DNA of 64,000 nt from Psammoneis japonica (Eukaryota), in assembly GCA_008632985.1 (NCBI GenBank), contig QPGO01000051.1, positions 248,001 through 312,000 of the forward strand, in the 5' to 3' direction. Shown one piece after another: positions 4,804 through 64,000 of the stretch. How positions within the stretch are numbered: the stretch's first letter is position 1; each line of letters opens with the position of its first letter. Both the position numbers and the translations under genes were made by a program. The notes under the pieces were generated by a model. That model saw only the letters and a list, made by a program, of their open reading frames with translations. It did no database searches and was not told where the DNA came from.

Positions 4804-5009
4804 CTAATCGTCTTCCCAGTTGCCTTCGTTGTAGCCAAGGACACCGGCGGCGGCTTGCTGAGCGGGCGTAAGGTCTTCCCAATCACTCTCCTGGACCAAC
4901 TTTGGTTCCTTGTCCTTGTCCCATAACTTCTTGGTGTATCCTAGGACTTTGGCTGCCTCTTGAACCTCCTTTGGAGCTCGTCCCAGTCGTAATCGTCGTA
5001 CTTGCCCAT
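4804..5009 (-). CDS. Intronless tandem paralogue of the small acidic repeat protein (1-bp frameshift near 4973)
   Basis: With one C restored it reads MGKYDDYDWDELPKEVQEAAKVLGYTKKLWDKDKEPKLVQESDWEDLTPAQQAAAGVLGYNEGNWEDD*. Confidence 0.75.
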
Positions 5010-10420: not shown

Positions 10421-10530
10421 GAGAAAAGGGAATAAATCTACCGGTACGCATGTGATGAGAAAAAGGGAATCTAGCTACGCATGAGAAAAAGGGAATCTAC
10501 GCATGAGAAAAAAGGGAATCTCTACTCATG
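10421..10530 (+). repeat. Imperfect tandem repeat, 4 x GAGAAAAAGGGAATCT(..)ACGCAT
   Basis: Four units read directly, sitting at the left edge of a TpA-depleted block. Confidence 0.85.
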
Positions 10531-28400: not shown

Positions 28401-31300
28401 TGCTGGGGCTGCTGAAATGGGGCACAGACGCGTTCCAGGTCTAGGTGGGACCTCGCACTACTGAACTGTGACATCGATAGTTTTTTGAATCACGTCGTAT
28501 GTCGCGCACGTAGATTTCTACGTGATTTTTTTGACATTTTGTGTCATTTTACGGTACACTTATTGAGCGATCCGTCCAACAACTTTTGACATTTTTTGTT
28601 ACAGCGCGATTCTATAATGTCTTAAGAATCGCGTAGGGCAGGTGCATTTGCAAAAACGTCGAGTGGTAAGAGGCATAATTGTACCACAAACTTGGCCGTT
28701 TATTTGATGTTGAAGATAAATGTATGCATTAATTAAATTCTCGTACTACGGAGCTCGCACGTAGAATTCTACGGGCCCAATGTCACACGGAGTCCCACCT
28801 AGGGCTGGAACGCGTCCACAAAACTGCTGACACAAGCTCCCTTGTGTCCTTCCTTTCACATGGCTGTCCACAAAAGCAAGCCAGCCATGGCACCACTCAC
28901 AAGTGCACCAGCAGGCACTGGTCCAGCAGCATCATGCCACTCAGGTGTGCCCAACAGCAGCTGGTGGGTGCCGTTGACAATGTCGCCTCAGAAGCCATGT
29001 TGGAAGCACATTTCTTTCTCAACTTGGCAGAGGACAATGAACAAGCCATCACCCCACCCACCATCCAAAAGATGGCCAAGGCTTTGCAGCTGGATGTGGC
29101 TGCACACCAACCAACTTGCCTCTGCACTTGTCTTGTCAAAGCATGCACAGAGGAGCAGACAGCACTGTGGATCCCTGCTCCAAGCCTTGCAAAGTTTTGC
29201 ACGAGAAGCAGGCAGTTGTTGACAAAGATGTGAAAAAAGCCATTTCCAAAATTGCGCCAGCACTCCAAGGCCGTTGGTTGGAGAACCTCTCATGCATCAA
29301 AGCCACTTTCAAGACCTTTGCTTGGTGTGCTGACAAAGGGTTGCCATTTGGCGCAGATCTGTTGAATGACAAATGCATTGTTTGGCTGGCGCAAATCATC
29401 TCACATTGCTCAGGCTCCCTTTCTTCCCTCTGAGCAATGCCAGAGTTTCACAAAGAGCAAACTGCCAAGCAGTGGAGACCCACTTGCACCAAAGGAAAAT
29501 GAAGCAGTTTGTGCAAGTGTGTCTTCATGGCCAACAGTGTTTTCAGGCAAAGAGATGCCCCAATGTTGTTGCACTTGCAGGAGCTCCAAAGATTGGAGGT
29601 CAATCATGCTGTCATGATCTTGCCATTGGCCAGCCATGCCAGCTGTGCAGCTGACCAACATGTTCCCCAATGCACTGAAGATGCAGCAAGAACAGCACAA
29701 AAATCAGCTGGGTGTTTGTGGCCTGAACAGTGCTGGGTGCTGGGGGGCCTTGGGGCATTTTTGAGCCAAAATGCCATCTTCTTGCAGGGTGCATCTTGCC
29801 CAGAAAGAAAGCCTGGGAAGCTGCAAATTGCAGCATGCATGCAGACAAAAGGTCATTTTTGTCACGCCCTTTGTGACATTTAAAGGCTGCAACACATCGC
29901 CGCGACACATTGACTCTTGTTGGCAGCTGCATGTTGCGCTCCTCCCCATGTGTCACGCGTCCATGCGGCTCTTTACTGACGTGCACTGACACTGCACAGT
30001 TTTGGCAGAACAGTGTGGGTGTGTGCGAAGGAACACACAGAACTGCACAGAGTTTTGCGCGTTCGACAGTGATCAACGTTGCTGCGGACAACTCCCACTC
30101 AGGGTTTCGAACCCCTGGCCTCCTGCCCAATGGTTGCGATGAACCACTCCGCTGTGAATTCACAACGCAGCATGCGTGCAGACAAAAGGTTGTTTTTGTC
30201 ATGCCCTTTGTGACATTTAAAGGCTGCAACACGTCGCCGTGATGCGCCTGACTCTTGTTGGCAGCTGTGCACTGCAAAATGGATCAAACATGTGCATGGC
30301 ATGCAGCAGTGCATCTCTGGCAACAACCAAGTCGCGCATGCTTTGGCAAAAAAAGGCACGCGTGAAAGCCTTGATGCACTGTGAGCGATGGAGGACAATC
30401 ATCTGTGTGGAAAGCAGTTGGCGCAGCATTTGAAAAAAGCAACAAATGTGCAGAAGTGTTTTGTCTTGAGGATCAAAGAAACAAGACAAGAAAAATGTGA
30501 GAATGTCTTGGGAGCAAAATTGCACAGAGAAAAAGCGTGACCAGCTGGGGCAACATCGCCAAGAAAAGAGCCACCATGATGGTGACAGCACTTCCAATTA
30601 AAGGCAAAATGGAGTGTCATGCCTTGCACCACCCTTGGCATCTTCATCATGTTGCAAGCGCCTGTTGCTCCAAAGTGCCGTGGCAGGTTGGCACTGTGAG
30701 CAGCAGGCAGTCAAACACAATTTCGTTCACAGCATTCCCAACAAACCATCTCTGCCATTGGCGCATGCCATTCAGCAAGGAAATGAAATGCTCTGCTCAG
30801 TTTGGACAAGGAAATCAGTGTTTTTTCATCTTTTTCTCAACCCTTCACTGTCTCTCTTGTCTTCCACTGTGTTTTGGTGCTGATTTGTCACTGGAAATTT
30901 GAAATGGGATGGCTCAAAGGTGGCACACCCATGCTTGGAATCCACTTTTGGGATGGTGATTTGTGTCTAGAAGGTGCTGAGCCAAAGGTGGGAGCCATTG
31001 GAGGCATTTGCAGATGAATCATCTATTGTAAATGAGATGGGGCCAAAGTGGTGCAGTCTGTTCCTCTGCTCGTTGCAAGCTTTCTCTGGAAAGGCACCCT
31101 CTGCCCCCCATTGGCAAGAGAGCTCGGATCCGCTAATTCTTTTACTGAAGACATTGTGCCAGGTCAAACTGCATGATGCACAAGAAAGACATGATGAAGC
31201 TTCGTCTGATGGCTCGACTCCCTTGAAGGAGCTTTCCAGTTGAACAGACAAATCAGGTGAAGCCGTGGAGCGGTGTCTTGCGGAGTGGACCGTGAAGGGA
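25448..31300. mobile_element. Composite TpA-depleted repeat block between the two Lhcx genes; left part may be a Crypton/tyrosine-recombinase N-terminal remnant
   Basis: Very few TA outside the MITE; frameshifted TEDGYKTAVAAFDVF...LMRQFYAF...HWKPKSQAQCGSG segment; internal ~100-bp duplications (27180-27281/27801-27903; 29830-29929/30167-30267). Confidence 0.55.
28427..28816. mobile_element. MITE copy 1 (390 bp, ~25-bp TIRs, 4-bp TSD CACA)
   Basis: gacgcgttccaggtctaggtgggac ... gtcccacctagggctggaacgcgtc, flanked by caca on both sides; homologous to 50418-50813; retains many TA. Confidence 0.9.
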
Positions 31301-41450: not shown

Positions 41451-43258
41451 TTACGTTTGTGGGGCCTTCTTCATGAGAGAAGCAAAGGTGACTGGCATTC
41501 TTGTGGACCCACCCATCAAAGGGTTGTTCGTGGCACCGACGGCTTCTGCTCGATCAACAAGTACCTCGTCGTCCTCGGACTCTTCAATTTCACTCAAAAG
41601 GCCCTCGTATTCATCGTCGTCGTCGTCTTCACTGAAAGAGCTTTGGATGTTTCTCGATAAACTTGCGTCTTGATTAGGCACTGCTGGGGAGGGCAACAAG
41701 AACTGTTTCCAAAAGAGAGAGGAACCATTGTCAGAAATTGGTTGATTTTGCTTGAATGATTTCAATTCCAATTCATGAACATATTCTTCGCTTTCATGCA
41801 AATCGGGTAATTCTTTGGAGGCATGGTATGCGCAGTATGCCAAGAGTGCGGCCAACAAGTAAGGCCATCCCGGAAGAGCCGAATGTTCACTGAGAGTCAT
41901 GAGACTACCAAGTACGAGCGGCCCAATTCCTTCAGTCAGGGCCTTGATACCATTAATCGCACCCAAGGCTTCTCCAACGGCCTGAGGCTCAACGTTCCCC
42001 GAGACCAAGGAACTGAGTGACGGATAAACCAGGTTGCCCAGCAACGAGAATGCTGCACAGACAAACAGGTGCCACGGCTCAAAGGCAAACCCCAAAATGA
42101 TGCACTGCATCACAAAACTAATCAATCCCATTTGCATTGACTTTAATTCACCAAACATTGGAACCATTATTCGAACCAAGACCGCTTCGGCAATCATAGT
42201 GGACAAACCCAAGGCCGACATTAACTCTCCCAGTCTTTCTGGACCGAGATGAAAATGTTGGGCGGCATAGAGAATCAAGGTAGAAATGACGGCCCACAGG
42301 CGGTGTAGTAGAAAAATGCCACCTTGCCGACACGACGCAAGAATGGATCAATCGAGATGAGAGCCAAGCTCTCAAACGGCGAGGACCACGAGAGAGACGT
42401 TTGATCTTGCTGCTGTTGTCGTTGAGGATTACTCTCGGGTAGTATGAAATAAATGTATACCAAATCCAATAATGTGAGAGTTAGCGAGGCAGCAAAGACA
42501 TGCCGTGTCTTGCCCGCATTGGCGATATATCCTCCGGCCATGGGTCCAATCGTAAAGCTCAACCCAAAGGTTGCAAGAGCCAACCCATATGCTGCGACAC
42601 GATCGTTCCGTTCAGTCACTGTATCAGAAATGTAAGCAAAGACCAGGGTAAAGGTCGAGCTGAAAACACCACTAAGTGCCAACAAGACAACAAACATGGT
42701 AATAGCTGTCGACGAGAGAGTATCATTGATCGTCGCAGGGTTGCTTTTGTCGGAAAACATGGGAAACGCCCAGGTATCTTCTTCTCCCTCCGATAACATC
42801 GTCACATTGTTGCCATTGTCAGTTGCTTGCTGTTGTTGAGAGGCAGTCAGGGTTGTAAAAGACATGACAGCCAAGGAACAAACCGGAGCACAGGTTCCAG
42901 CTACAGTAACGAATAAACATAAACGTCTTCCAACGACATCACTGAGCTTGCCGAAGAGCGGGCAAGCGACAAAAGCGAGCAACCCTCGTACACATTCTGC
43001 GACTCCCATTACCAAATAAACATGCGACGACCCATATTGTTGTATTAAGATTCCTGGTAACACCGCGCGAGTCAATGCCAATGCTAAAAACTCCATCAAC
43101 AACACCGGTAGCACGTACAAGTGCTGTTGCTGCTGCTGATTATTCTTGATGGATGCATGGTGTTGTTGATTCTCCGATGAAAGCTGTGCTAAACGAGGCG
43201 GTGAACCATAAGCCGATGATGGAGCAGTTTCCATCATGCGTGGAGAATACAACGACAT
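41451..43258 (-). CDS. MFS transporter, HIAT1/MFSD14 (TetA-like) type; frameshift near 42300
   Basis: Motif A GKLSDVVGRR, FAYISD, FGLSFTIGPMAGG, GEALGAINGIKALTEGIGP; one C restores YYTALWAVISTLILY. Confidence 0.88.
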
Positions 43259-43329
43259 TGTTTTATGGGGTCTTTTGTTGTTATTGTTGATAAAAACTCA
43301 TTGGAACAAAACACAACGGCATGACGAGG

Positions 43330-44245
43330 AGCGAGGTGTGCAAGGTTTTGTGTCCTTTTGAAAAAGACCTTTCTCGCAGGCATGCTTGTTGGTTTGTCTG
43401 GATCAATGCTTGAGCTCCACAACTGGGGTCCTGCTCCTAAATCAAAATGCACAGCTACACTGATGTGCAACCGATGTGCCTTTGATGGTGTGATGTGTGA
43501 TGTGCCATGGCAGTTGCGGAATCAAAACAGTTGACATTGCTGTCATTCAGAGTTGTTGATCTCTCCCGACACACAGGGTGTGCACAGGCTTCACTCGTCA
43601 TCAAAGCCGCTGTCATTCTTTTTTGCACACACACAACAATGGGCACCAACGGCAGCTTGCTTTCAGAGCTGGCACACATTTTCTTGGCATCAGCAGTGCT
43701 GAAAATGCAGAGTCCAGTTACAAGCTCCTTTTGAGACTGTGCTGACATGGCTGCAAAGACCCACCAGTGCTTCTTGCACGTGGCCTGCCTCCTCTGCTGC
43801 ACGAATTGAGAGGCAGCAGAGAGCACTGGGGCTGTGCCCTGGTGGAAAAGGTGCAGCAAACAAAACATCACTGCAGGAAAAAGGAAAAAAGGTTCCTGTG
43901 TGCAGATCAGACAAGCAAGAAGGGCTCGTGGAAAAAGACAAGAAAAGAGGATTTTTTCAAGCAGGAAAGAGATGGTGGTGTGGAGGCCGGGGCTGGCCGG
44001 GAACCTTGTCAGAAAAGCAAGTGTGGCTGTGCTGTGCATGAGGGCTCTCTCTGCCCAGGCCACATTGTCAGTGTCATGCCAGCAAATGAATGTGTGCTGG
44101 GTTCCCCACGACAGTGGCATGTGCGCGGACATTGCGTTGTTGGAGAACAAGAGAGACAAAGAACAAGTGTGCGCTTTGTTTTCGCGCTTCTTTCTGCACC
44201 CTTGCACCACAGCACGCGCACTGTGCCCGCATCGTTTTCTCTTCG
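43330..44245. mobile_element. Degenerate TpA-depleted block next to the YR retrotransposon
   Basis: About three TA, all toward the MFS gene side; Cys/His-rich spurious ORFs. Confidence 0.5.
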
Positions 44246-44691
44246 GGATTCGATGATGTGAGATGCCGATCCGCATCCGACAAAAGTCCTAGACTGCCAG
44301 CCCAAGAACCACTGAGAAGAACCTTGGCATTGGAATGCTTGGGAGTCTCATGGAGTGGAGCTCTCGGCAACACTCTACTCCGCACAAGGGGGGTTGGGCA
44401 AAACCCACACCCTCCGCAGGGTCTCGAGTAAAACTCGAGGGCTCGTGATCAGGAACCTCTAGGATCTGCTCATGGCGCTTCCAGTCGAGACCAGTGGGAG
44501 GTGCCTCCGGCATTTCGCAACGTCGGAACCCCACACCAGATGAATCTCAGACTTGGAATCGAAGATGATGCCCGATGCTGTTCCTGTGACTTCGTAGCTG
44601 ATGCGTCGTCTAAAGCAGATCGTCAAGGAACCTGGTCCAGACTTTGCAGGTAGACTCCCGTGGTCCAACAGTGAAGTTGAGCGCAAAATCC
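44246..44691 (-). repeat. Split direct repeat B2
   Basis: ~445-bp copy of 44963-45407. Confidence 0.95.
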
Positions 44692-44710
44692 AGGGAGTGG
44701 TGGGTGGGTG

Positions 44711-44959
44711 CAAAAAATCGCTTTTCCAATGCTTTGGAATGATCCAGTCACGTTGATCAGGGTTCCTGTCTCAACAAAGATGGAAAAGTGAGAGCAACAA
44801 AACGCTGACAGGTTTGACCGGTCTCCGTGACCAGTCATCTTGGAGACCAGTCATCTTGGGCCAGAAGTGCCCGCTTCTGGAAGAGGCACAAGTCTTGGGA
44901 CATTTTCCGATGAAAGGTCTTGCATCGCACTGTTCGTCTCCATCTAAACTTGGGTGCGA
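44711..44959 (-). repeat. Split direct repeat A2
   Basis: Copy of 53531-53763 with a 16-bp internal duplication. Confidence 0.95.
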
Positions 44960-44962
44960 GGA

Positions 44963-45407
44963 GGATTCGATGATGTGAGATGCCGATCCGCATCCGACAA
45001 AAGTCCAGACTGCCAGCCCAAGAACCACTGAGAAGAACCTTGGCATTGGAATGCTTGGGAGTCTCATGGAGCAGAGCTCTCGGCAACACTCTGCTCCGCA
45101 CAAGGGGGGTTGGGCAAAACCCATGCCCTCCGCAGGGTCTCGAGCAAAACTCGAGGGCTCACGATCAGGAACCTCTAGGATCCACTCATGGCGCTTCCAG
45201 TTGAGACCAGTGGGAGGCACCTCCGGCATTTCGCAACGTCGGAACCCCATGCTAGATGAATCTCAGACTTGGAATCGAAGATGACGCCCGACGCTGTTCC
45301 TGTGACTTCACAGCTGATGCGTCGTCTAAAGCAGATCATCAAGGAACCTGGTCCAGACTTTACAGGCAGACTCCCGTGGTCTGACAGTAAAGTTGAGCGC
45401 AAAATCC
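44963..45407 (-). repeat. Split direct repeat B1
   Basis: Copy of 44246-44691. Confidence 0.95.
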
Positions 45408-45493
45408 CCCCCGATGAGAACTCCCAGGTGGTGGCCACCTGAAAAAAGAAATCTTGAGATCCAACGAAGAAGAGGCAGGTGGTGAAGCTTGTC

Positions 45494-47024
45494 TCACATT
45501 TCCTGTGTGCATCTCAGGAAAGAGGGAAGGAGGAGAGAGATGTTGGCACAGTGTTGCCTCATCTTGTGTGAGGGCCGAGCGGCCCCAGCTCGCTCCTTCC
45601 TTTTCCATTGATTCACTGCATCGATGTCGTCTTCCGACACACTCTGGGAAACAGCTCGCGAGTCAGACCCACGATGGAACGATCGGCTCACATCGCACTT
45701 CTCTTGATGTCGCCATGAGAAGTGATGTCGGCACCAAACAGAGCCGGGTGGTCGTTGAACAGTTCACCCAGAACAAGATGGAGAAGGGTGTTCAACTCCC
45801 AAGTGGTTGCAACCTTCCCTCCAGGGTCTGATGCAGCCGGCCCTCTAGCACGTCCTTTCGAAGCTTGCAAGGACACAACAGCTCGGGTCCATCCACGGAT
45901 CTGATGCCGGAACCTGTCACATTTACGCTTGGCAGAAGGTGCTGCCGCTCACCGTGTTCTCCCCCAACTCGTCGAGCAAAGGGATCACAACACACGAGTT
46001 GTGGAGTGGGAGGTGTTCCCGCAACGCCCCCAAATGATGAGCAATCCCTCTGGCCCACAAAGGGACAGGGTGAAGCTCACTGCAAAACAGAAGCCCCCGG
46101 CCAGAAACCCAAACCGATCCCCGGCGTTTGTGGCTTGAAGAAACTTGTCTTCAAGCCTTGGCAGCAGATGTTGCACAATTTGAACAGAAATTGCCCTGTC
46201 CGGCCTCCAATCCTGGCCCATTTGTCTCTTGCATCCAGTCACAAACCTTTGAAACCACAAGGAGGCACACGGGTCCTCGCATGTCTGAAGGTGTTGCTTG
46301 CCTTCAAGATCCGCCAACGCAAGGGCCCGAGAGTTGGCGGAGGCTGATGCCCTGACCTGGTTTGAGCAAGCTGTTCGAAGCTTCCTGACGGTGTCAAACT
46401 GGGAGTGCGAGCCTGAACAGTGACCGGGGGGTGTGATGCCAAGACTGTCTGCATTGCCACCTCATGTCCACAGTGATCATGCGGAGGCAAGGGGCCTGGT
46501 TCCAGATGAGGGCCATGAAGACCAAGACGATCCAACAGGGCCAATCCCTGAGCCACCTTGGACGCGTTGTTCTCCACAGTGGAACTTTCTCTGCTCCAGA
46601 ATGCACCCAAATTGATCTGCCTGATGCAAGCCAATGCCACCTCATCACGTGGAGAAGTCGGGATAGGGTCTCTGCGATGCAACTCATGAAAAATGCAAGT
46701 GTCGCACTTGAAAGCCACCATTGGATGGTCCCCAGCACGAGCTTGGAAGAACTTGTTCCTGTCCTGGGGCTTTCGAAACCAAATGTTGTCTTCAATTTGC
46801 GCCGCATCCTCACCTGGCTGGGCCCCGTCATCGTTTTGATGGTCGTCCGGGAGAATCCCGCCCAAGTGAAGGTGACGCTTGCGCTCGAAGCATGACACCC
46901 TGGACACCACGCTCTGCGACACGGAGGCCAACCTCGGACACTGTGCACAAAATTTGCGCAAAATGTCCCTCGCGTCCACTTCAGCCTCCTCCCACACTTT
47001 TGCAACGCCCGGTCCATGGAGCAC
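45494..47024 (-). pseudogene. Tyrosine recombinase of the retrotransposon (frameshifted, catalytic residues mutated)
   Basis: AFWSRESSTV; SLCGPEG (expected SLRGxE); SRSFHRGS...VNQW...MRQHC (expected RSxRRG...W...HY). Confidence 0.8.
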
Positions 47025-47063
47025 ATCTTTGGTGTCCCTCGGAGCTGCTGCGGACTGTGAGAG

Positions 47064-50061
47064 ATGAAGGGGAAAACAAGACCGATGAGCAAAGGTTCGA
47101 ACATTTCTTCAGGCCAGAACGCCCCAGCTCCCGCCGGCACCAGAAAGACGAGGTCCGCTGCCTCACACAATTGTTTCTGCCACTCCGGAGTCATTGGGTG
47201 CGGACAGACAAAAATGTGGAACGATTTCTGGCGCTTGAGGTGGGCAATGCAGAGTTCTTCGAGAGCCGTTCTAGCCGCGGCGGGCGGTGGGGCCCAGACC
47301 CAAGTGCCTGACCGGAACACTGGCATCTCAACCGCTTCGCAGGGCGGGCAGTGCCACTCAGATGTGTCGCGGCCCTTCTGGAACCAATCGACAGGAGAAA
47401 GGAGTTCGGCCGTCAGTGATCCCACCCAGGAATGGATCCAATCGAACAGCAGAGGTGCCCGCTCAGTCGCTGCCAAGTGCAAAGGAACAAACGAGAGCAT
47501 CTTGGCCCCATTCAAGACCCCTTCCACAAGATGCCTCGAAAACCCCATCTGTGCCTTGGGCTGTCATGCGTTTGCCCGAGACATGAACCAAGTGGAGAAT
47601 GAACCCGCACTTGGCCTCGAGCACCCGCAACCGTGTCACCTGCTCCAGGAGTTTCAGATTCGACGAGGTTTTTGTAGACTGCAATCTCTGAGACTGAGTT
47701 GTCAGTGAAAAAGCAGAGAGTGGTGCCATCCATTTCCCCCCGACTCAGCCAGCTCCTGGACTGCATCGATTGTGCTCGAAAGTTCCTTCCAATTTGAAGA
47801 ATTGGATTGATCATCGTCGCCCCAGATCCCAATCCGAAACACGATCGCCCCGTCCTTAGTCTGGACGGATGAACCAAGGCCCTTCCCAGACGCATCAGCG
47901 AATCCGCACAGGACCACCACAACCTTGGAGGAGCAGACAATTCCAGCAGCAGGCTCATCCGGTTCCACAATCCGTCGCAAAGCCCGCAAGTCAGAGAACA
48001 ACTGAGGCACTGCACGCACGGTCTCGGGGTGCTTGCCGTCCCGAAGGTTCTCACCAAGCTCACACGGATCAGCACTGAGCTTGTCGGCCTTGTGATGGAT
48101 CCATGCTGTGCACTCCTCATCTGACACAGCCCACCCATCCGCCTTTCGGTTTGGGCGCCAACTGTCCAGTGTCAGGTGAATCCCTTTGAGGAAGGGCATC
48201 AAAAAGGGGCAAGTCATGGCGGCATGGACAAGAAACCCACGCTTTCGTTCGAGGTCCTTAAAGTTGCACTCGGGAGGCCGAGTCATCCATTCCATCGCAT
48301 GACTTAGAAGGGACTCAATCATGCCCTTGCCCTTGTCCCACTTGGCCTGTGAAAGAGATTGGGTGACATTGCGGGCAAGCACGCGGAAAATGGCACCAGC
48401 CCAGGCACCCATCTCCTGCTGGGATGGGGGCTGAACTTTGCGCGGGGCGTTCTGGAGTCCAAGACACTGAAGCCTGGCAGCCATCTGATGTGCCACTTGC
48501 CACGCCTCTTCTTCACTGGCTCCCATGCCTGCAAGTCATCTGCGAAGGTTTTGATGTCTCCAGCGATGATCTTCAGGATGGAGTTCCATTTGATCATGAG
48601 TGGGTCTTGAACCTTGCAACTGGGATCCCCTGGGAGGTTAAAAAGAACTTTGTCAAAGCCCGCGGGGTTCCCCGGACGGCTGGGATCCCCTCGGGCCACT
48701 TCGTCAGCCCAATGATGCGTCTGCACCGCGTTGCAAGGGCTGGGCTTCATTCCCATAAACAGACGGTTCCAACGCTCCATGCCAACAGGAGATTCAGTCG
48801 GCAAGGGCCGTGGGAGGTGGTTGCGGAGCGGAGTGAGATCAACACCGGCAAAGGGTCGAATCCGTGGGTCCATGAAAAAATTGAGAAACATGTCCCCCAG
48901 ATCCAAATCAACAGAGAAAGTTGATTCGGTCATGCACCCTAACACCGACGCTGCAGTTGGAAGGAAGAAAGAAGGAGCCCAGAGAGCGTCGTTTAGACCG
49001 GATGAAGTGCCGTTGTGCACCATCCGGATGTCCTCGACTGCTTCCTCCATCCTCCCGTCAGACCTCGGGACCAAAGACACAGCCTCAGGGACCCAGAAAC
49101 AGTCTGCAAGACTCGAAACTGGAGCACGCTCAATGCATCCATGGTCCCGGACCTTCTGGATTTTGGTTGCCATGCGCTGCACTTCGTTTGCAGAGCCGCA
49201 AACCCGTTGCCACTTGCGGTTCCTGGGTGGCGTGCCTCTTGCGAAAATCGGAAGACCATCGCGTGCTCCCTGGCGTTGCTCAGGCGAGGGCCTGCGCCAG
49301 AAGAAAAGAGAAGAGCCCCGGCCCCAGCTCCACCAGGAACTTGGCAAAGTTTGAGTTAGAACGTCAGTGCCAAGATTCCCGTCCAACAGTGACGCTGGGA
49401 GTGGTGGGTCTCGATGCAAGCCCCCCTGATGACTCAACAGAGAGTCCCCAAACCATTGTCGCAAGCGCAGCAGCTGAGGAACCCATTCCCACCCGTGGCA
49501 TCGACTCATGTGCCCCAAGAACGAGCGAGTCAAACGGCGGTGCCACCACCAAAGAGCCATCACACGCAAAGCTGGAAGGACAGGCCCAAACATGGGAAAC
49601 AAAAGCGCAATCCGCTTGTCCCATGGACGAAAAGGCGGCAATGCCGAATCCCCTTTTGCCGCCTTGGCAGTGACAAGGGACAGGTTGATCCATTCGTGAG
49701 GCAAATGCCGACCAAGCCGAGGCAGCCAAGTGGCCACAGCCGGCTCAATGGCAGGTTCCGAAGGACCCAAAGATGGGTCGAGGACCGCCGGCCGGGTGCT
49801 GGTGGAGCGCTGCTCAATGACGTGGTCAATGACCGAGGCAAGTAGATTCAGTGGGATCAACTGACTCCACACCTCCCCAGAGAGCAAATCCATCATCTCC
49901 CTTGTCCGGAATCGAAGTGGGAAATCCCACGCAGCCAGGAGTTCGTCGTCACTCAACTCCCTGAGGATCCACCCCGCATGGGACCGGTGAGACTGATGTG
50001 ACACTGGCCGGTGAGTGACTTGTGGGCTCACACGATCGCCCTCCCTGTGACACACCCCCAA
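47064..50061 (-). pseudogene. Reverse transcriptase + RNase H + MT-like region of the retrotransposon
   Basis: DIRMVHNGT, DLDLGDMFLNF, MGMKPSPC, FADD; RNase H CGFADASG...SSNWKEL...FFTDN; WVWAPPP...FVCP...W segment. Confidence 0.85.
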
Positions 50062-50417
50062 AGGTTCTGAGGGGCACGGCTGTCCCGCCAGTTTGCAGTC
50101 AATGATGTGGCCAATCGTGCAACACAGGCCCCCCCTGAACTCTGGGAGAGAGCCCCCGACACAGAAAAGGGTCGTTCAAAAGGACGTGACGCCGCCAACC
50201 ACTGAATGGGGTGGGCCAACGTGACACAAGTGCTGAAGCCCTTTCAAGCCACGTCTTGACATCTTGCCGACCGGGGCCAAGTGCATCGGAACATTGCACT
50301 CCAATCGAGAGATCCTCTCCAAGCATGCCGGGTCCCCAGACACCAGTGCCACATCGCCAGCAGGCGCCAAATTGCCAATCCCTGAGAATGGCATGCGTTG
50401 AAGAGATGCACCCTTCT

Positions 50418-50813
50418 GGCGTGTTCCAGCTCTAGGTGGGACCTCGCACTGCTGAACTGTGACATGATTGTTTTTTGTCATCCGTCGCATGTTTCGCACG
50501 TGCATTTCTACGTGTTCTATCATAAAAAATTGTTCCACACTGCCTGTTTTGCGAAGCCAAAGGCTTTCTGTTGTCTGCACTCATGTCAACAAAAATGTGC
50601 TGGGTGTGTTCTTTAATGTCTAAAGAACATGCCCGGGCATGCTGTAAAGAATGTGCTTCAAGTGTGGAGGAGGAGATGCGTTCGCAAAATTGCCTCTTTT
50701 TCTGTTGGCGATCATTCATGCATGCATTGCTCAACAATTTTACTGCGGAGCTCGCACGTAGAATTCTGCGGGCCCAATGTCACAAAAAGTCCCACCCAGG
50801 ACTGGAACCCGTC
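50418..50813. mobile_element. MITE copy 2 nested in the retrotransposon
   Basis: ggcgtgttccagctctaggtgggac ... gtcccacccaggactggaacccgtc; flanks ttct/tcct; homologous to 28427-28816. Confidence 0.88.
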
Positions 50814-51037
50814 TCCTGACCCTCGCAGAGGTGGATGACAGCACACTCCAACAGGGTGGGAGGATCGTTCACACAACACAATGCGACACGAGGCCACTCA
50901 GATGGCCTTGACGCCAGGAGCCAAATGGGGGGGGCGGTGGAAATGATCAAGCAAGACCCATGGAACAAAAACAATTTGCGACCGCGGATGACAAGCCCCA
51001 CATTTTCGAACACAGGTGAGTCCACCCCCTCCGAGTT

Positions 51038-53215
51038 TCATTTCTTGGATTCTATCGCTTTCAGACACCCATTGACCTCTTTGAGTTCCGTTTTCAGTTT
51101 GTTCACCTCCTGGTGCGCCGTGTCAGCTCTGGCCTGTGCCGACTTGGCTTCGGTTCCAGCATTTTTTGCCTTTTCCGTCAGCATTGTCACTGCAGCTTGC
51201 AATGCAGTGACAGCTTCAAAGCCGGAGTTCGTAGCCAGAAATTTCACATGCTCCGATGCCATGGAGGGGTGGTCCCTGAAGTTGTGAGCTGTGTGCTCGG
51301 CCACAATGTCGTGAGACCGAAAAATTGCCCAAAGAATCTGGCTGCACACAGCATCCAGATCTGTCCCCTCGACAGACGTGAAGATGCCGGAGCGAACCTG
51401 ATTGAGATCATCGAAGATTCTGTGCACCAATTTCGAAGTCAAGGACCACGCCTGCTTTTGAGAGAACTTGCTCAGTTGCACCAGGTTCTTGCAAGTTTCA
51501 TCCACAAACTGAATCAAACCCCGAATAAATGCTGCTGACTTCGACAGGGCATCTCGAACCACCTGGCCTTCAAACGACCCCCCCGGGATTCGCTGAGCGA
51601 TGTCGTTCAAAATGTTTCGCTCGATCGTCCCAATTTTATCCATGATAAAATGCTTGGTCCCTGTTGAGCCAGTGGACCAGTGATCATGGGAGGCCATCTT
51701 GTCCAAGAACGACGGGTGAAGGCCCGCCGACTGCGCTCCTTTTGCCGAGCCCGAATCCAAAATTCTCGGCATGCCATGCTGAAAACTCGCCAGAGTCCTT
51801 GCATCCTCCTCCGTGCTGATCTTTGGGTCCATGCGCTTAGCCAGACCAGCCAAAAAATGGTGCAAAGCCGCTGGTTCCGTGCCCGCGATTCGATCCAACA
51901 ACAAATTTGCATCTGTAAGGCAGCCATGCACCCTGGAGGAAAAATGTTGTGCCACCCATGCTTGACATTCTCCAAAAGACGAGACACCGACCCCAGAGAA
52001 CTTGACAGCCGAAGTGTCTGACTTGGACTTCAACTCGTTCACCGCTTGGCTCAGATCCCGCATCTGTCGGTCCACGGAGCTCGAGCTTCCGACTCCTGTA
52101 AACCCCAATCCGCTGCCAGATCCAATCGCGCCTCCAAACGAGGCTCCCGCATTTTCAAGATTCTGAACTCTGCCAATCAACTGGTTGCAAACTTCAAGCA
52201 TGACTGTCCTCAGAGAGTCCATGTCACGCTCAGCTGCCAACCCAGAAATTTTGTTTTGCAAGTTCTGGATGGCGGCACTCACATTTGATGCCAGTCCATT
52301 GGAGCCGGCACGAACATTCGACTCCTGTGCCAAATCTACGGACAAGTCTCTGGGAGGGCACTCGGGTGAGCCGACTGTTGACAGACCAGCAAGTGTTCCC
52401 CAAATCGCAGGGGCTTCCACTTGCTGATCGAATTCCGGTGGAGGAGAACCGAGGGTTGCATCCAGCTGCTCCAACTTGCGGCTGAGGACGCTGACTGAGG
52501 AGTTCGATTCCTTGAAGTGCGCACATGCCTTGTTGCCCATCTCCACCACCGTGTTGCCGGTCTCCGTCAAGTTTCTTTCCAGGGACTGAACAACTCTAGC
52601 CAGGGCCGCAGGACTTTTGTTCGCGGCCAGAAATTGCGCCAGGGTGGTGGAAATCACCCGCTGGTGGGGTGTGAAGTGTCCGAAAAGTGCCCCAGGAAAT
52701 TCCTCGCTGCGGGGATCTTTGCCCTTCACCAGCGTCTTGTAAGCCGCAGCGACTTTGTGCTCCTTCAAAGACGCCCCACATTCTTCCTCCGTAGGACAGC
52801 GAGTGTCGCTGTTCCCGAGAGCCAGAAACTTCTGATGCCACCCTGCCAAAGTGTCGGTGTTCCCTTCCCACCTAACCAGCACCTCCGCCAAGACAAACGA
52901 GCCGTCCAAAGTGGGCTGGCAAAAAGCCGTGTCTGGTGTCTTGAGAATCGACACCATGCCGTCCGAAGGAATGACCTTCTTCGAGCCCTTGTGTTTCACC
53001 TTGCAATCCCCAGCTTTCTTGAAACAGAACGTGGCTCCACCCCCGACAACCCCAAGGCAACGGGAGTTGTCGGCACCTTCGATCCAGGTGACATGAAAAC
53101 GAGGTGCATCAGACGAAGGAGACGTGCCTTCCTCCATCGAGCCAGATGCACCTCGAGCCGCTCCCTCATCCTCCACTGCGAAAAAATCAACGCGGGGAGC
53201 GCCGTGATTTGACAT
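51038..53215 (-). CDS. ORF1 (gag-like, coiled-coil) of the YR retrotransposon
   Basis: Long open frame directly after A1; C-terminal coiled coil; only one Tyr in the 732-aa track ORF. Confidence 0.7.
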   Translation of the reverse strand: MSNHGAPRVDFFAVEDEGAARGASGSMEEGTSPSSDAPRFHVTWIEGADNSRCLGVVGGGATFCFKKAGDCKVKHKGSKKVIPSDGMVSILKTPDTAFCQPTLDGSFVLAEVLVRWEGNTDTLAGWHQKFLALGNSDTRCPTEEECGASLKEHKVAAAYKTLVKGKDPRSEEFPGALFGHFTPHQRVISTTLAQFLAANKSPAALARVVQSLERNLTETGNTVVEMGNKACAHFKESNSSVSVLSRKLEQLDATLGSPPPEFDQQVEAPAIWGTLAGLSTVGSPECPPRDLSVDLAQESNVRAGSNGLASNVSAAIQNLQNKISGLAAERDMDSLRTVMLEVCNQLIGRVQNLENAGASFGGAIGSGSGLGFTGVGSSSSVDRQMRDLSQAVNELKSKSDTSAVKFSGVGVSSFGECQAWVAQHFSSRVHGCLTDANLLLDRIAGTEPAALHHFLAGLAKRMDPKISTEEDARTLASFQHGMPRILDSGSAKGAQSAGLHPSFLDKMASHDHWSTGSTGTKHFIMDKIGTIERNILNDIAQRIPGGSFEGQVVRDALSKSAAFIRGLIQFVDETCKNLVQLSKFSQKQAWSLTSKLVHRIFDDLNQVRSGIFTSVEGTDLDAVCSQILWAIFRSHDIVAEHTAHNFRDHPSMASEHVKFLATNSGFEAVTALQAAVTMLTEKAKNAGTEAKSAQARADTAHQEVNKLKTELKEVNGCLKAIESKK

Positions 53216-53530
53216 GCTTTCTGCCCTCGAGAGCAAGGCATCGAATGCAGAATCTGGGTCAGGGGAAATGACTTCCCCAATTCCGCACGCTCAATGTCCG
53301 AATGTCCCATGTCGCCAGTCATTTCTTCAAGATTTGAGCCCCCAAGAGAGGGGCTCAAGCCTTCAACACCCCCCTGATGACCCACCGCAGAGGGTGGGGC
53401 CCGAGAAGCAGGCGACGCGGGAGACTGCACCAAAAAAGGAGAAATGACATTGGACTCTCACGTTGACGAAGGCACCATCATCGATGCCAGAGGAGAAGCA
53501 GTCGGACATGGTCGGGAGAGGGAGAGGGAG

Positions 53531-53763
53531 CAAAAAATCGCTTTTCCAATGCTTTGGAATGATCCAGTCAAGTTGATCAGGGTTCCTGTCTCAACAAAGA
53601 TGGAAAAGTGAGAGCAATAAAACGCCGATAGGTTTGACCGGTCTCCGTGACCAGTCATCTTGGGCCAGAAGTACCCGCTTCTGGAAGAGGCATAAGTCTT
53701 AGGACATTTTCCGATGAGAGGTCTTGCATCGCACGGTTCGTCTCCATCTAAACTTGGGTACGA
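53531..53763 (-). repeat. Split direct repeat A1 (5' end of the element; retains its TA dinucleotides)
   Basis: Copy of 44711-44959. Confidence 0.95.
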
Positions 53764-55795: not shown

Positions 55796-56928
55796 CTACT
55801 CAATGCTAGCATCGTAGTAGAAAAGAGGAAGATAAACCCATTGACCAATGCTGTTGGCTTCACAGATCATTGCCCCGTCGAGTTCATGGTCGCCCACCTG
55901 TGCTGGCATAGATGCAGCCGTTGCTGTTCTCCTCTGGCTGCTCAAGTTCTGAGCGCGTCGAAACCGAGCGAGTTCTGCCTGACATCGAGAGGCGTCCTTG
56001 GCCACCTGAACGAGAACTTCGCCAAGGACAGAGGGGTGCTGGAGCTTGATAGTGGCAACATCATCCACATTGACATTGTTCCAGTTTTCAACAAGCACTT
56101 GAATGCAGCGCTTCTGGAGGGAAGTCTGACTGGTGTGGCTTGGTTCAACGATTTTGCGTTCAGCATCCAACAGGCGAATGGCTGCATCTTGATGAACTTG
56201 TGGCAAGACACCTTGGGCTGTCAGGCCATTGAAACTGGCAGCGTCCATTTCAACGTTTTGAAACAATTCTGAAAGAAGACAACTCATGTGACGGCTCGAT
56301 TCTCTCCCCTGGGGCATTCCTCTCAGCAACAAAAGCCAAAAGTCCGGATCATTGACATGCACAATCCGAGAGGAGGTGTCAATGTCTAGAATGTTTTCCT
56401 TGAACATTCCGAGAGCAGCGTTCAATGCCTTTTCTTCATTCAAAGCCTTTGCATGTTCAATGCATGCACCGCATGTGTTGCTGCTGATGTCTTGAGTCCA
56501 GAACTTCTTGGTCTTCCAACGCAAATGTTGAATGCCAAAATGCTGAGAGAGGTGGCAAAGCGATGTGGCATTCTGAGTGTCAATGTCAAGAGCATCATCA
56601 GCAGCATGGATGTGATCCAACAAAGCAGGAAAGGCTTTCGCAGCAAGCTCTGGTGGCTCAATCTTGCTCGTCTGAGTTTGCTGTTCAGCAAACTCATTTT
56701 GAAAGAGCGAGCAGTGACAATCGCTCTTTCTTGCTCCCACGACAAGCACAATCTCATGCACATGGCAGTCCTTGCTTTTCAGTTCGTCGGACGAACAGTC
56801 CTTGCAGCTTGTCTGCACGCACCAGTCACTCAGACTCTGTTCCGGGTCAATCCTCCAGCTCAGTTCGGGGTGTTCTGGTTCTTGGTCAGAATCGAAAGCA
56901 TCCTGAACCGCGTCCGGGTCATTCGCAT
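55796..56928 (-). pseudogene. Diatom-type BTB/POZ-domain gene eroded by TpA mutation
   Basis: LSWRIDPEQSLSDW...CHVHEIVLVVG...AFPALLDHIH...LCHLSQHFGI; Tyr occurs only in the last 14 codons. Confidence 0.75.
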
Positions 56929-57006
56929 GCTGTTGTTTGCTGCGGCAACTGTCCCTTGAAGATCAACGAGACATTGCCACCAAAATGATCCACTCCAATC
57001 CGACCA

Positions 57007-60000
57007 TGGAAATGAGCTAGATGACAGCATGAGCTGGGGCAACAACCATCTAAAGCAGATGTGTGTCAACAGCGACCACTGTCAAAGAGATTCTGATCCT
57101 CGTGAAAGTCAAAATCCGCAAGAAGTGAGAGAGAGCTTCAAACCAAAAGTCTGAAGAGAGCAAAGAAGATGCCGGTTTGGCACTGGATTCCACGAGAAAG
57201 GAAGTGGATCGGACAACCCAGGAACCAAAAGGCCATCAATGGACCAAACCACTCAATGAGAAAAACCCAACAGTCCTCAATCAGACAAAGAAGCCAAACG
57301 CTCATGAAAGTCAAGACAGTGAAGTCCCATGCGAGACCTGCCAACTCCCGTGTGTGACCAACCCACGTCATAGATCAGAAACCGCAACTCTCGTTGCTTG
57401 CTCTCCCTCTCGAGAAGACGTCGACTGCAAGACGTCAGATCGCCATTGAAAAAAATTCAAACGAAGTTCGCACCAAAACACAACCCATCATGCAATGATG
57501 CGACACCACATGCAGAGATGTGACAACCCCAGTCATCACACCTGATTGCCATCACCCTTTTCATGTGCAACACATGCATTCAAACTTGAATCAACATGTG
57601 CACAAAGTGAGTCCACCAGCTGCCTGCCACCTCATCAACTTCTTCCGCAAATGCCAAACTTTTCCTGAACCAAACCCTTTGCAAAGATGTCTGCCAACTG
57701 TTCCTCACAAGCAATCTTTTGAATGTAAATCAAAGAGTCAGGCCTTGCAATGCGAGACACCTGAAGAAATGACACTTGACCGCGACATGCTTGGCACGAG
57801 AAGTCATCTTCGGCATCGTGGCCAGCGTCAAAGCACTGTTGTTGTCCTCAAAAATGGCAGAATGGAGCAACATTTCATCATCCCAATCAATGCTCATTGA
57901 AGAAGAAACTTCCTTGATGAGTCTTTTCATGGGCAGCAGGACTCTCATCACCTGAGACAAGAGGTGACATGCTCCACCTCGAGCACAGACAAAGCAATCT
58001 TGGTCTGCAGCTTGGAAGCCCATGTCAAGGGGTTGCTGCCAATGGTCAACAAGCAACCAGACCAACTCTTGACACACACACAGAATCCTGTGGGTCCTCA
58101 TGGTTCCAAAGCCCAGTGAAATCCATGTCACAACAACAATCCAACCTTGAGTCATCGAAGACGTCACAGCAAAAATGACACTGCGATCCTTTGTGCCTTG
58201 AAGATGCCTGGCAATCCACTTGGCAGCTTCCTCATGGCTCTTCTTGGGATTGTGCATGAACCCAACACAGCTGCAAACCACATTTTGAATGTTGGGCCTG
58301 GCACTGGAAGCCAGATGGAGCATCACACCAATGGCACTTGCACAGCTCCACGATTCAACTCGTTTGGATCCGTCGGCATCGGTGGCCAAAGGAGATGAGC
58401 TGGCAGGAGTCTTCTTGACATGACAATCCTCCACATTTGCAGCAGCAATGATCTTCTTGACAAGACCCTTTTGAGTGAGATGAGCAGTTCCAGCCTCATC
58501 ATCCCCATCATTGTCAACGCCAAGAAAGTCATTTGCATCGTCAGAAACATCAAGTTCATGACTGCTGGTCTTGAGCTCACTCACGATGTCATCGATTCTC
58601 ACAAGATCCTTCACAAAGAATGAACAATCATCAACATGTGCAAGGCAAACAACATCTTTGCCGATGAACAAACAAGGGTCGCTCTCACCAGAGTGCAATC
58701 CAACCTCTTCCAGACCCTTGGACAGGTGCTGGAACCATGCAGTCACTGCTTGGCGCAAGCCGCAAAGGCTCTTGTTTAGCTTCAGTGTGCAGTCTCCCTC
58801 ATGTTTCATCTCAAAGAGCTTGGGTGATTCAACACAAACACCCCTTCAAGAATGTCTGCCTGAGCAAAAGCGAGGGCATGATCCACTTGACGTGACACCA
58901 ATCCACACAGGTTCGACAGACTCATGAGCAATGAGCAACCACACTGAACCATGCTCTGCTGGACCACCGGAGCATCCGTCGGGGCATCTCTTGATTTTAA
59001 ATGCCCAAGTGCCAGTCAAAACATTGCATTTGATGGCGCCGACTCGCGCAGCACGGAGCAAATGAATTTTGTTGCGTTGGGTCATTGATTTCAGATTGCA
59101 TGGCCTTCTTGAACTCTTCTGCATGCACCCTGCCATTGCTTCATGATGTAAAGGGGGGCACCAGGATCGCGAGTCTTCTTGCTTGCAAAAGAATCCAACA
59201 GGCAGGGTGACAATGGACATGCTGAATTGACACCATCACCATCGAGATCAGCGAACATTGCACGCATCTTTGCAAATTCCACTGTTCTGCAACCAGACTT
59301 GAGCCAACAAGTTAAGTTGGAGATGAAAGAGGCCGCGCCTTTAAGAGCATGCCCATCACAACCATGGTGTTTGTCGGAACCTTCACAACCATGACAATCT
59401 GGAGGATGAATGGTTCTTCCAGAGCATGTCCAAACCGGAGTTGGGTCACTTGGAGCTTCTTGGAAATGGCCGTCATTGTTGACAATCAAAGGCATTTCTT
59501 GAGATCTTGGGATTCTTGAGTCTCCCTCTGGAGGCTCGGACACATCAGCTGGAGCCAAAGGAGACTCAATGCTCAGAGGAGCAACTTCGTCATGAATGAA
59601 ATTGGGAGAGGACAGAGAAAAAATGCCCCTGACAGATTAATTTTGACCCCTCACAGATCAGTCGTAAAATGGGAATCCACGACTAAAACAACATGCACCG
59701 CTTCGCCACTTCTGCATCCCAGAATTTAGAAAAACAGTTTTGCACGGTCAGGGTTGGGGTTTTGCATGGTCAGGGTTGGTTTTTGGGGTTTAGGTTGGGG
59801 GGCAGGGAGTGGGACTTTTGGCAAACTCCAGTTTGTGAATGAGCAAGATTCCACAAAAAAAGTCAATCTATGACAGGACCGAGCCAATCTGTGAGGAGTT
59901 GGCACCCAAGGACAGAAGACCTGGCAAAACATCTTCAGAACATGGAACACTTGACCATCTGGGAGTGGCAGAACATCCTTGGGAAGAAGACGGCACCCTT

Positions 60001-63000: not shown

Positions 63001-64000
63001 CTCATCAAATCCACATCAACTTTGTTGAAAGAGAGTCACAAATTGAATCTAAAATGACTCGAGAACTGTTGATGTTGCAAGACCACTGCAAATGATCAAA
63101 GCAGCATCTTCGGGAAGCTTGTGATGGCCTTCTTGGCATCTGCACAATTCAACAACCTTTGCAGCACAGTTCTTGACATTCTCTCCTGGCTCTTCCTTGA
63201 GTTTCACAGCCTTGAGTTTGTCCACCACCATGCACAGAGCCCACTCAGTTGATGAATGCAACTTGTTGGCAGTGACAAGCTTGCAGACAACGGGCCCATG
63301 CGTGGGTCCACCAATGTGCTTCTGGGTGTCACCGTGTGGGGTGACAACCAACCAAGTTTAGAAAGAACTGTTTGGGCCAAAGCAAGTTTTGATGATCACA
63401 TTGGCCACCCATTGTGAGCGACTCTTGCAGATCCGACAAGCTGCAATCCATCACGAGATTCAACTCTTGAGGTGCCCCAGTCCTCGGGTCTCTCCTCTGG
63501 ATGCAGAGCGCGGAATCCGTGCCACTCATGAGAACACATTTGCCAACAGAGTTGGTCCAACTGATGAGAGTCACCTTGCAATCCTTGCCAGTGTCAATCT
63601 TTGACTCCAAGCCTTTGTGACAGCAAGAGACAATTGTTGTTGTGTGACAGAATGACATCGGACGTTGACATCTAGGTCCACAAGCCATGGCATGTGGACC
63701 AGTGATTCTCGGACCATCGGTCCAAGTGATGTGCCTCAAGAAGTGGAGAAGTGACCTTGAGATTGATCCCCAAACTTGGCACTTGAATCATCTGACGTGT
63801 CATTGTTGCCAAACAAACTGGCGTCATGCCGACAAGAGTGTTTCTTGATCCTCCAGAACAATCACTCATTTCGGAGAATCAGAGGTCTTGCTTCATGTCA
63901 ATTTGCAGACCAGTCAATTCAAAGCAATGACAACACTTGGGCTCACAACCACGGAAGTGAGCTAGATGACAGCATGAGCTGGGGCAACAACAACTGTCCA
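57007..64000 (-). mobile_element. Ty1/Copia (CoDi-like) LTR retrotransposon, degenerate; 5' LTR runs off the window
   Basis: Order gag, PR (61214-61558), IN (60357-61235, GAHHQN, WGCP..VLDP), RT/RH (57730-59220, SLCGLRQA, HVDD, KHVAVKCHFFR); LTR-end match 57003-57046 vs 63948-63991. Confidence 0.9.
63938..63950 (-). other. Primer-binding site, half-tRNA-iMet type (mutated)
   Basis: Minus strand GGTTGTGAGCCCA next to the LTR end; the Ty5/copia-type PBS is GGTTATG(A/G)GCCC. Confidence 0.65.

Follow-up and report, generated by a model that had tools for sequence, protein, structure and literature searches.

The 64,000-nucleotide stretch of Psammoneis japonica DNA analysed here (contig QPGO01000051.1 of assembly GCA_008632985.1, positions 248,001 to 312,000; hereafter the window) is nuclear diatom DNA in which two direct repeats, B1 and B2, lie within a 10-kb island around a dead retrotransposon. 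With a probability of roughly four in five, two local mutation processes, a fast loss of TpA and a slower decay of CpG, have acted throughout that island, and B1 and B2, together with a second repeat pair, S and S', are the split direct repeats of a dead 9.5-kb Ngaro/PAT-like element. The evidence lies in the spectrum and direction of change, in its restriction to transposon islands, in the fact that both DNA strands are hit and in a bias towards certain flanking bases. A sequence-only reading had already recognised in B1 and B2 that TA and CG converge on TG/CA; beyond that reading, the process is domain-wide, TA is lost much faster than CG, and the repeats are parts of one retrotransposon. 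The pieces of the putative element, in window positions, are as follows.

44246 to 44691, minus strand: B1, read as the B split direct repeat at the 3' terminus of the element (called B2 in Ngaro nomenclature), 94% identical to 44963-45407.
44693 to 44959, minus strand: S, read as the internal A repeat (A2), 88% identical to 53514-53763, with a 16-nt tandem duplication at 44829-44859.
44963 to 45407, minus strand: B2, read as the inner of the two B split direct repeats (called B1 in Ngaro nomenclature).
46937 to 50403, minus strand: relic pol gene, predicted reverse transcriptase (RT) and probable RNase H, frameshifted once near 48530 and devoid of all its conserved Tyr codons.
51038 to 53290, minus strand: open frame of 750 codons in the position of a gag-like first open reading frame (ORF).
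53514 to 53763, minus strand: S', read as the 5'-terminal A repeat (A1), straddling the edge of the purged domain and retaining its TAs (7).

B1 and B2, which are in direct orientation and spaced 716-717 bp apart, align over 446 columns with 26 transitions, no transversion and a single indel column (T at 44290). All 26 substitutions fall within pyrimidine-purine (YR) steps, although such steps cover just 192 of the 446 positions, and the probability that 18 independent events would all do so is about 2.5e-7. Twenty YR steps vary between the copies: seven pair TA with TG or CA, seven pair CG with TG or CA, and six are reciprocal TG/CA sites (44356, 44408, 44467, 44502, 44534 and 44666), while two adjacent GT/AC doublets (44445-6 and 44594-5) each represent two overlapping YR steps. 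Across the 96 aligned YR steps, the unchanged pairs are CA/CA (29), TG/TG (25), CG/CG (20) and TA/TA (2), and the changed pairs are CA/TG (6), CA/TA (4), TA/TG (3), CG/TG (4) and CA/CG (3). B1 contains 7 TA, 24 CG, 33 TG and 32 CA dinucleotides and B2 contains 5 TA and 23 CG, which places the observed-to-expected ratio (o/e) of TA at 0.31 and 0.23, respectively. The coordinates and content given in the sequence-only reading, as well as every difference it cited as an example, recur in this alignment; its class of reciprocal TG/CA sites is equally real but was undercounted, with four sites listed where six are present in addition to the two doublets.

The restriction to YR steps is a local peculiarity, since three repeat or paralogue pairs from the gene domains of the window lack it. 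The pair 3911-4020 versus 4895-5003 differs by 16 transitions and 11 transversions, with only 5 of the 16 transitions in YR steps, and two segments of fucoxanthin-chlorophyll protein (FCP) paralogues show 14 transitions and 14 transversions (7 of 14 transitions in YR steps) and 7 transitions and 5 transversions (4 of 7), respectively.

Markov models with homogeneous rates, fitted to the 96 YR steps of the pair, bear on the direction of change. The Akaike information criterion (AIC) was 349.5 for the convergent model, 350.2 for a T>C-only model, 352.9 for a stationary reversible model and 362.7 for a C>T-only model of the kind expected from repeat-induced point mutation (RIP), the last being about 13 units worse than the convergent one. 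Every adequate model fits a loss per branch, to each product, of 0.64 for TA and of 0.08 or less for CG; the comparison of TpA and CpG loss rates that the sequence-only reading had called for thus gives, in the pair fit, a roughly eightfold faster loss of TA. The modelled ancestor of B1 and B2 carried about 20 TA, a near-random content. Because none of the 254 non-YR positions of the pair has changed, TA loss exceeds the background rate by at least 108-fold and CpG loss by at least 14-fold.

Comparison with further copies adds polarity. At six sites TA in S' stands opposite TG or CA in S, and at no site is the direction reversed, with TA counts of 1 in S and 7 in S'. For the B repeat, contigs from one public sequencing run were aligned to 44100-45500 as a family outgroup (198 contig pieces, the B and S repeats being multi-copy), and the polarity values are contig depth shares rather than haplotypes, taken among the variants listed. 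Among those variants, TA is the plurality family state at 44356-7, where A is found in 17 contigs and C in 8, so that TA contigs exceed CG contigs by 9; TA accounts for 68% and 62% of family depth at 44332 and 44352, two sites with TG in B1 as well as in B2; at 44446, the presence of C in all 7 other contigs identifies the T of B1 as a decayed CpG; and at 44569, C carries 72% of family depth. The opposite polarity, with TA-bearing states derived from CA or TG, would contradict the sequence-only reading; it was looked for with the outgroups and did not appear. On the preferred reading, the six reciprocal sites go back, mostly or entirely, to TA ancestors and not to CG ancestors. Conserved words from the B and S repeats had no match in two metagenome scans, and the public runs matching the stretch belong to one study, with no RNA run listed among them.

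Conserved codons in two relic genes, namely the relic pol gene of the B1/B2 island and a Copia-type relic in a second island (56050-64000), provide a further record of direction: because Tyr codons are TAY, a change from Tyr to Cys or His is a TA>TG or TA>CA event. Pooled over both relics, none of 26 conserved Tyr codons has been kept, and 22 now read TGY (Cys) or CAY (His). In the Copia relic, for which all 43 homologues served as outgroup, the 13 consensus Tyr codons have without exception become TGY (7) or CAY (6); the RT frame contains no Tyr in 371 residues, against 1.1-6.4% Tyr in 36 aligned relatives, and reads HVDD where the relatives have a conserved Tyr, in the motif named YVDD. Other residues of this relic are mostly retained (Trp 12/13, Cys 9/10), while its 27 consensus Arg positions comprise 15 retained and 10 CpG-decay products. 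In the pol relic, tested with 146 of 150 homologues after four with less than 1% Tyr had been dropped, 13 consensus Tyr columns have become 6 Cys, 3 His and 4 Phe, with no Tyr left, and 24 of 45 consensus Arg are retained, with 12 replaced by Gln, His or Cys. The pooled consensus Arg positions (n = 72) accordingly include 39 retained and 22 that now read Gln, His, Cys, Trp or stop. On the sense strand TGY (13) and CAY (9) both occur, so both DNA strands were hit, which argues against editing of the element RNA and agrees with the earlier proposal that each copy was struck independently and on either strand. As expected of old dead copies, the relic genes have further accumulated frameshifts, a stop codon and substitutions outside YR steps. 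CpG decay is polarised from CG to TG/CA at 44446 and 44569, in the Arg codons and in the CG o/e of the islands; the convergence of TA and CG on TG/CA is supported jointly by the pair likelihood, the family contigs, the S/S' comparison, the Tyr and Arg codons and composition, the low TA content of the domain being the reverse of the trace expected from a process that generates TA.

The dinucleotide composition of the window is sharply bimodal in 1-kb bins, with purged bins in runs of 2 to 10 adjacent bins. The two compartments compare as follows, the purged total excluding B1, S, B2 and both copies of a miniature inverted-repeat transposable element (MITE).

Gene domains, 38,147 bp: TA o/e 0.57, CG 0.97, TG 1.18, CA 1.16.
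Purged islands, 23,161 bp: TA o/e 0.05 (73 TA), CG 0.51, TG 1.64, CA 1.54.

The o/e values of the remaining 12 dinucleotides differ by no more than 0.12 between the compartments. TA loss and CpG loss share exactly the same domains, the borders with neighbouring genes are sharp, and TA o/e across the transposon islands ranges from 0.01 to 0.1. The purged regions are listed below.

1 to 1378, no strand assigned: purged stretch with 1 TA (at 577) in 1,378 bp and a CG o/e of 0.15 in the 1-1000 bin.
25454 to 30968, no strand assigned: purged island, broken by a TA-bearing MITE (28442-28800).
43456 to 53618, no strand assigned: purged and CpG-depleted island that contains B1 and B2, comprising the element and single-copy flank, with 1-9 TA per kb and TA-free gaps of up to 745 bp.
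56050 to 64000, minus strand: purged island with the relic Copia-type retrotransposon, including an RVT_2 ORF at 57730-58845 (Pfam, E 9.3e-15) and further pol pieces to about 61300.

The purge extends beyond the repeated DNA: the flank at 43456-44245 holds only 2 TA in 790 bp, and its portion at 44100-44244 has a read depth of 56, the lowest of the stretch covered, with no sign of extra copies.

The bases around surviving TAs reveal a sequence preference, derived with B1 and B2 left out. RTAY (R, purine; Y, pyrimidine) accounts for 1 of 73 surviving TAs in the purged domains versus 452 of 1472 in the gene domains, and YTAR for 40 of 73 versus 277 of 1472 (chi-square p 8e-15 for the difference in context). 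Expressed for the mutated adenine, TA is sensitive when followed by a pyrimidine and resistant when followed by a purine. In B1 and B2, both shared TAs are YTAR, and none of the seven sites at which TA was lost in one copy would be RTAY; three of the six reciprocal sites would be RTAY versus none of nine others (Fisher p 0.044), an excess that lends modest support to their origin from TA. Bacterial TadA acts at a U-A-C site, which the T-A-pyrimidine bias may resemble.

The architecture of the island gives the repeats their place. Read along the minus strand, the element runs from S' (53763-53514) through the ORFs to B (45407-44963), S (44959-44693) and a second B (44691-44246), a layout that matches the A1-[ORFs]-B1A2B2 split direct repeats of Ngaro/PAT-type elements of the DIRS order, in which, as passages of two sources describe (PMC8547959, PMC4157794), A2 repeats A1 and B2 repeats B1. 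If the layout is as in those elements, B1 and B2 were identical at insertion and all 26 differences arose in place. The split-repeat reading is consistent with the similar substitution divergence of the two pairs (14 in about 250 for S/S', 26 in 445 for B1/B2) and with the high, uneven read depth that follows from A and B repeat pieces being scattered in the genome. The element is also richer in G+C than its surroundings, and it shares this trait and the genome-wide scatter of A and B repeat pieces with the Ngaro elements of Cafeteria, also a stramenopile (PMC8547959).

A further resemblance to Ngaro/PAT-type elements is the succession of an RT-fold protein and a probable RNase H. The relic pol has 1962 relatives at E up to 0.001 in a representative library (best E 1.1e-95), and homologue P0164 aligns through residues 143-1267 to 50211-46937 with one frameshift in the relic. 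This family (P0164-P0313) consists of proteins of 1200-1300 residues that match no Pfam family, RVT_1 reaching just E 0.018-0.18 in three of eight relatives, and P0164 has no meaningful match among the sequences of the Protein Data Bank (PDB). A structural model of the family core, with a predicted local distance difference test score of 78.8, matches HIV-1 RT chains over about 265 columns (E 1.3e-8, probability 1.00), and the product of 46937-50403 is, on this predicted fold, a reverse transcriptase; an RNase H-like DAS...E...TDN pattern, read by eye in P0164, makes an RNase H probable. Unlike Ngaro/PAT-type elements, the island shows no detectable tyrosine recombinase in the scanned ORFs, and its RT family is too divergent for Pfam. 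No Pfam match was found in the scanned ORFs of 45400-47563, where heavy mutation, including the loss of every Tyr, may hide a recombinase, and nothing recombinase-like was seen by eye in the ORFs of 45400-47100. The 51038-53290 frame matches no Pfam family above cut-off and has no relative in a word-indexed search. Its length far exceeds chance even in TA-free DNA, where TGA is the sole stop.

The only precedent for TpA-specific hypermutation is a preprint about a chlorarachniophyte in which integrated viruses were hit (Mettrop et al., bioRxiv 10.64898/2026.01.13.699255, 2026). According to the main text of that preprint, 230 of 231 new mutations in the integrated giant virus and virophage of Bigelowiella natans mutation-accumulation lines took the form of A>G or T>C, every one at TpA, and arose at about 1000-fold the rate of the genome; 124 clusters of TpA-depleted, CpA- and TpG-enriched 1-kb windows were rich in reverse transcriptase and transposase genes; and an ADAT2-like deaminase was put forward as the agent. 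The diatom window shares with this system A>G or T>C change at TpA that gives TpG or CpA according to strand (here, 13 of 20 variable YR steps are of TA type or reciprocal), TpA depletion coupled to CpA and TpG enrichment in clustered 1-kb windows, discrete regions of mobile or foreign origin (here, the islands of the Copia relic and the RT element), and a rate far above background (here, the indirect bound given above relative to non-YR positions). It differs in that the host is a stramenopile rather than a chlorarachniophyte and the targets are retrotransposon islands rather than viral integrants; in being near saturation, with a TA o/e of 0.05 versus 0.45 for the nucleocytoplasmic large DNA virus region of B. 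natans; in the coincident CpG decay, which forms a separate class; in the preference for a 3' pyrimidine, where the main text of the preprint reports no flanking preference; and in being read from sequence traces, not from de novo events. The main text of the preprint does not mention diatoms, and no report of TpA purging in diatoms was found in the literature library searched.

Alternative explanations differ chiefly in the direction, strand and chemistry that they would demand. Cytosine deamination as the sole agent, whether RIP-like or acting on methylated cytosine at CpG and CpA, would run from CG through TG/CA to TA and make the TA states derived. Formally, each of the 26 changes could be a C>T or a G>A, part of the CpG decay is real (44446 and the products of the Arg codons), and passages of PMC9998398 describe diatom DNMT4 enzymes related to fungal RID and the methylation of transposons in diatoms. 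Against this, the cytosine-only model has the worst AIC and predicts 1.8 reciprocal sites and 15 sites with CG in one copy, where six and seven are seen; Tyr codons have turned into Cys and His codons and not the opposite way, and S' retains TA at the six sites where S has lost it. Fungal RIP offers a likeness in being a transition-only, dinucleotide-biased hypermutation that inactivates transposons in place and leaks into adjoining unique DNA; its C>T changes, however, make TpA, whereas the A>G changes at TpA seen here remove it. In place of the raised TpA and lowered CpA and TpG that RIP leaves in repeats, the islands have a TA o/e of 0.05 and TG and CA near 1.6, and even in B1 and B2 TA is depleted; nor are both members of a repeat pair mutated, with S hit, S' spared and single-copy flank purged. 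Methyl-CpG decay is matched by the island CG o/e of 0.51 with its gain of TG and CA and by Arg codons that pass from CGN to CAN or TGN, but alone it explains 7 of 20 variable YR steps, with no more than a share of the six reciprocal ones in addition, and cannot remove TA. A cytosine-only explanation is thus hardly tenable. Selection, in the form of a structured RNA that tolerates G-U transitions or of UpA and CpG avoidance in element RNA against host nucleases, is highly improbable as well. It would draw on the absence of broken pairs among 140 predicted ones, on one compensatory pair (U-A to C-G) together with a G-U to A-U change in a hairpin at 44352-44381, and on the suppression of UpA and CpG with excess UpG and CpA that is usual in RNA viruses (PMC3829696). 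Structured RNA was tried as a candidate and rejected: one compensatory pair among 140 is little, the minus strand folds equally well and also without broken pairs, the fold z-score is -1.81, and no Rfam family matches at E up to 1 over 43000-46500 or at gathering score over the whole window. Structure would moreover leave the YR restriction unexplained, and the purge ruins the conserved Tyr of the RT motif (HVDD) along with every other conserved Tyr and extends over single-copy non-coding flank and both strands. The TA o/e of 0.01-0.05 also lies far under the values typical of viral genomes. The hairpin itself, GGAG(TG/CA)GAG ... CTCT(A/G)CTCC, pairs in both copies and holds the sole compensatory pair of the repeat.

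A different agent with the same outcome deserves more weight, although it too is on the unlikely side: error-prone patch repair triggered by the T:G mismatches of methylated CpG, with a polymerase misinserting G opposite T at TA, or a modified (e.g., oxidised) thymine at TpA. Polymerase eta, for example, misinserts at WA motifs. Such an agent would suit the exact coincidence of TA and CpG loss and the action on both strands. A WA-type error should, however, deplete AA too, whereas AA o/e is 1.23 in the purged and 1.16 in the gene domains; change is purely by transition, in 26 of 26 B1/B2 differences and 22 of 22 changed Tyr codons; and the nearly exclusive A>G and T>C spectrum at TpA in B. natans arises where the main text of the preprint describes no CpG-specific mutation. 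An assembly or base-calling artefact, in which heavy modification of silenced DNA would make TA and CG appear as TG/CA, is unlikely. The window does differ by about 2% from the sole public run that contains the stretch (52% of sampled 31-letter words shared), and among the variants listed the window letters at 44446 (the T of B1) and 44914 (an A) have no contig support. The contigs of that run nevertheless agree with the window at the B sites in having TG, CA and few TA, and one of them matches the TA-free flank at 44100-44275 save for 2 letters and 1 gap; strand-specific miscalls should give TA/CG as often as TG/CA and could not account for a TA content reduced by 95%; and ordinary decay is seen in the relic genes as well, in the form of frameshifts, a stop codon and substitutions outside YR steps. 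The divergence of about 2% could reflect strain or haplotype divergence, or assembly error.

The divergence between run and window and the two unsupported letters also count against the preferred reading of TpA loss and CpG decay in a split-repeat element, as do several other observations. The outgroup data for B1 and B2 proper are thin, consisting of one contig set and depth shares, and at 44408-9 CA (about 50%) and TG (48%) divide the family almost evenly, leaving neither ancestral state to be seen and no polarity to be read. The models assumed equal rates, and if CpGs decayed at very unequal rates, some reciprocal sites could have begun as CG. No tyrosine recombinase was found, and the identity of the B copies at insertion is taken from the architecture alone. 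Finally, B1 and B2 retain about 30% of the modelled ancestral TA versus about 8% of gene-domain density in the island interior, the latter figure being an estimate from TA counts; such unequal retention within one element implies that rate, age or starting composition differs.

Within the preferred reading, a mechanism can be sketched. TpA becomes TpG or CpA through A-to-G change after T on either DNA strand, most readily when a pyrimidine follows the A, and CpG becomes TpG or CpA more slowly, as expected of methylated-cytosine deamination in silenced transposons; with copies hit independently, a TA ancestor now appears as TA/TG, TA/CA or reciprocal TG/CA. The CpG component would then represent 5-methylcytosine deamination in silenced transposons, and diatom transposons are described as methylated in passages of PMC9998398. 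By analogy with B. natans, the agent acting on TpA may be a TadA/ADAT2-like enzyme that deaminates adenine to inosine in DNA as a genome defence on silenced chromatin. That S was hit while its copy S' escaped argues against recognition by repeat pairing, and since unique flank is purged as well, targeting would be by chromatin domain. More tentatively, and at somewhat less than even odds, diatoms could possess an 'inverse RIP', a chromatin-targeted adenine deamination at T-A-pyrimidine that erases every TA, and hence all Tyr codons and TAA/TAG stops, from silenced retrotransposons while methyl-CpG decays; because the same signature is seen de novo in a chlorarachniophyte, such a system would be old and widespread in stramenopile-alveolate-rhizarian lineages and a major but overlooked shaper of genome composition.

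The window represents the end state of a TpA purge in a diatom, with a TA o/e of 0.01-0.1, every conserved Tyr codon rewritten and sharp borders, and thereby widens the phenomenon, which now takes in retrotransposons as targets and a second major lineage of algae. The flanking-base preference can be compared with candidate enzymes, and the contrast between S and S' suggests targeting by chromatin domain over repeat pairing. On a practical level, TA o/e per kilobase is a cheap marker of silenced mobile DNA in such genomes, and TA-free islands mimic long ORFs in all six frames, by which gene callers would be misled: with TAA and TAG nearly absent from 43000-53500 and 56000-64000, many overlapping open frames of 150-390 codons arise on both strands. 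Of the 23 island ORFs, 21 stay below the Pfam cut-offs, the exceptions being the RVT_2 ORF and a BTB match (55796-56962).

Several smaller features complete the description of the window. The genes of the gene domains are intron-poor and include an FCP gene and an M13 peptidase gene, the best source-named relatives of the latter being diatom proteins of up to 63% identity; no tRNA genes were found in the window. The minus-strand ORF at 55796-56962, with a weak BTB domain (E 1.1e-5, just above cut-off), spans the island border near 56050, carries Tyr only in its short unpurged portion and is possibly a host-type gene trapped by the island. Among the Atlas neighbours of P0164 are clusters with RVT_1, DNA_methylase and Dam domains, which serve as leads only and hint at retrotransposons that carry methyltransferases. 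Between genes, a partly purged patch at 10523-11368 has TA-free gaps of 308 and 537 bp, a TA o/e of about 0.25 and a CG o/e of 0.62-0.98. Short repeat pairs at 26507-30267, within the island at 25454-30968, also carry reciprocal TG/CA doublets, e.g., CCAG/CTGG and GTCAT/GTTGT, with 0, 2 and 4 transversions in three such pairs.

The probable MITE is present in two AT-rich copies of about 360 bp (28442-28800 and 50433-50759), both forming TA-bearing patches inside purged islands, and has the terminal inverted repeats GTTCCAG.TCTAGGTGGGAC ... GTCCCACCTAGGGCTGGAAC. The copy at 28442-28800 holds 26 TA and 25 TG, and that at 50433-50759, in the B1/B2 island, 8 TA and 40 TG; at several sites the latter has TG or CA where the former has TA, as if it were part-way purged.

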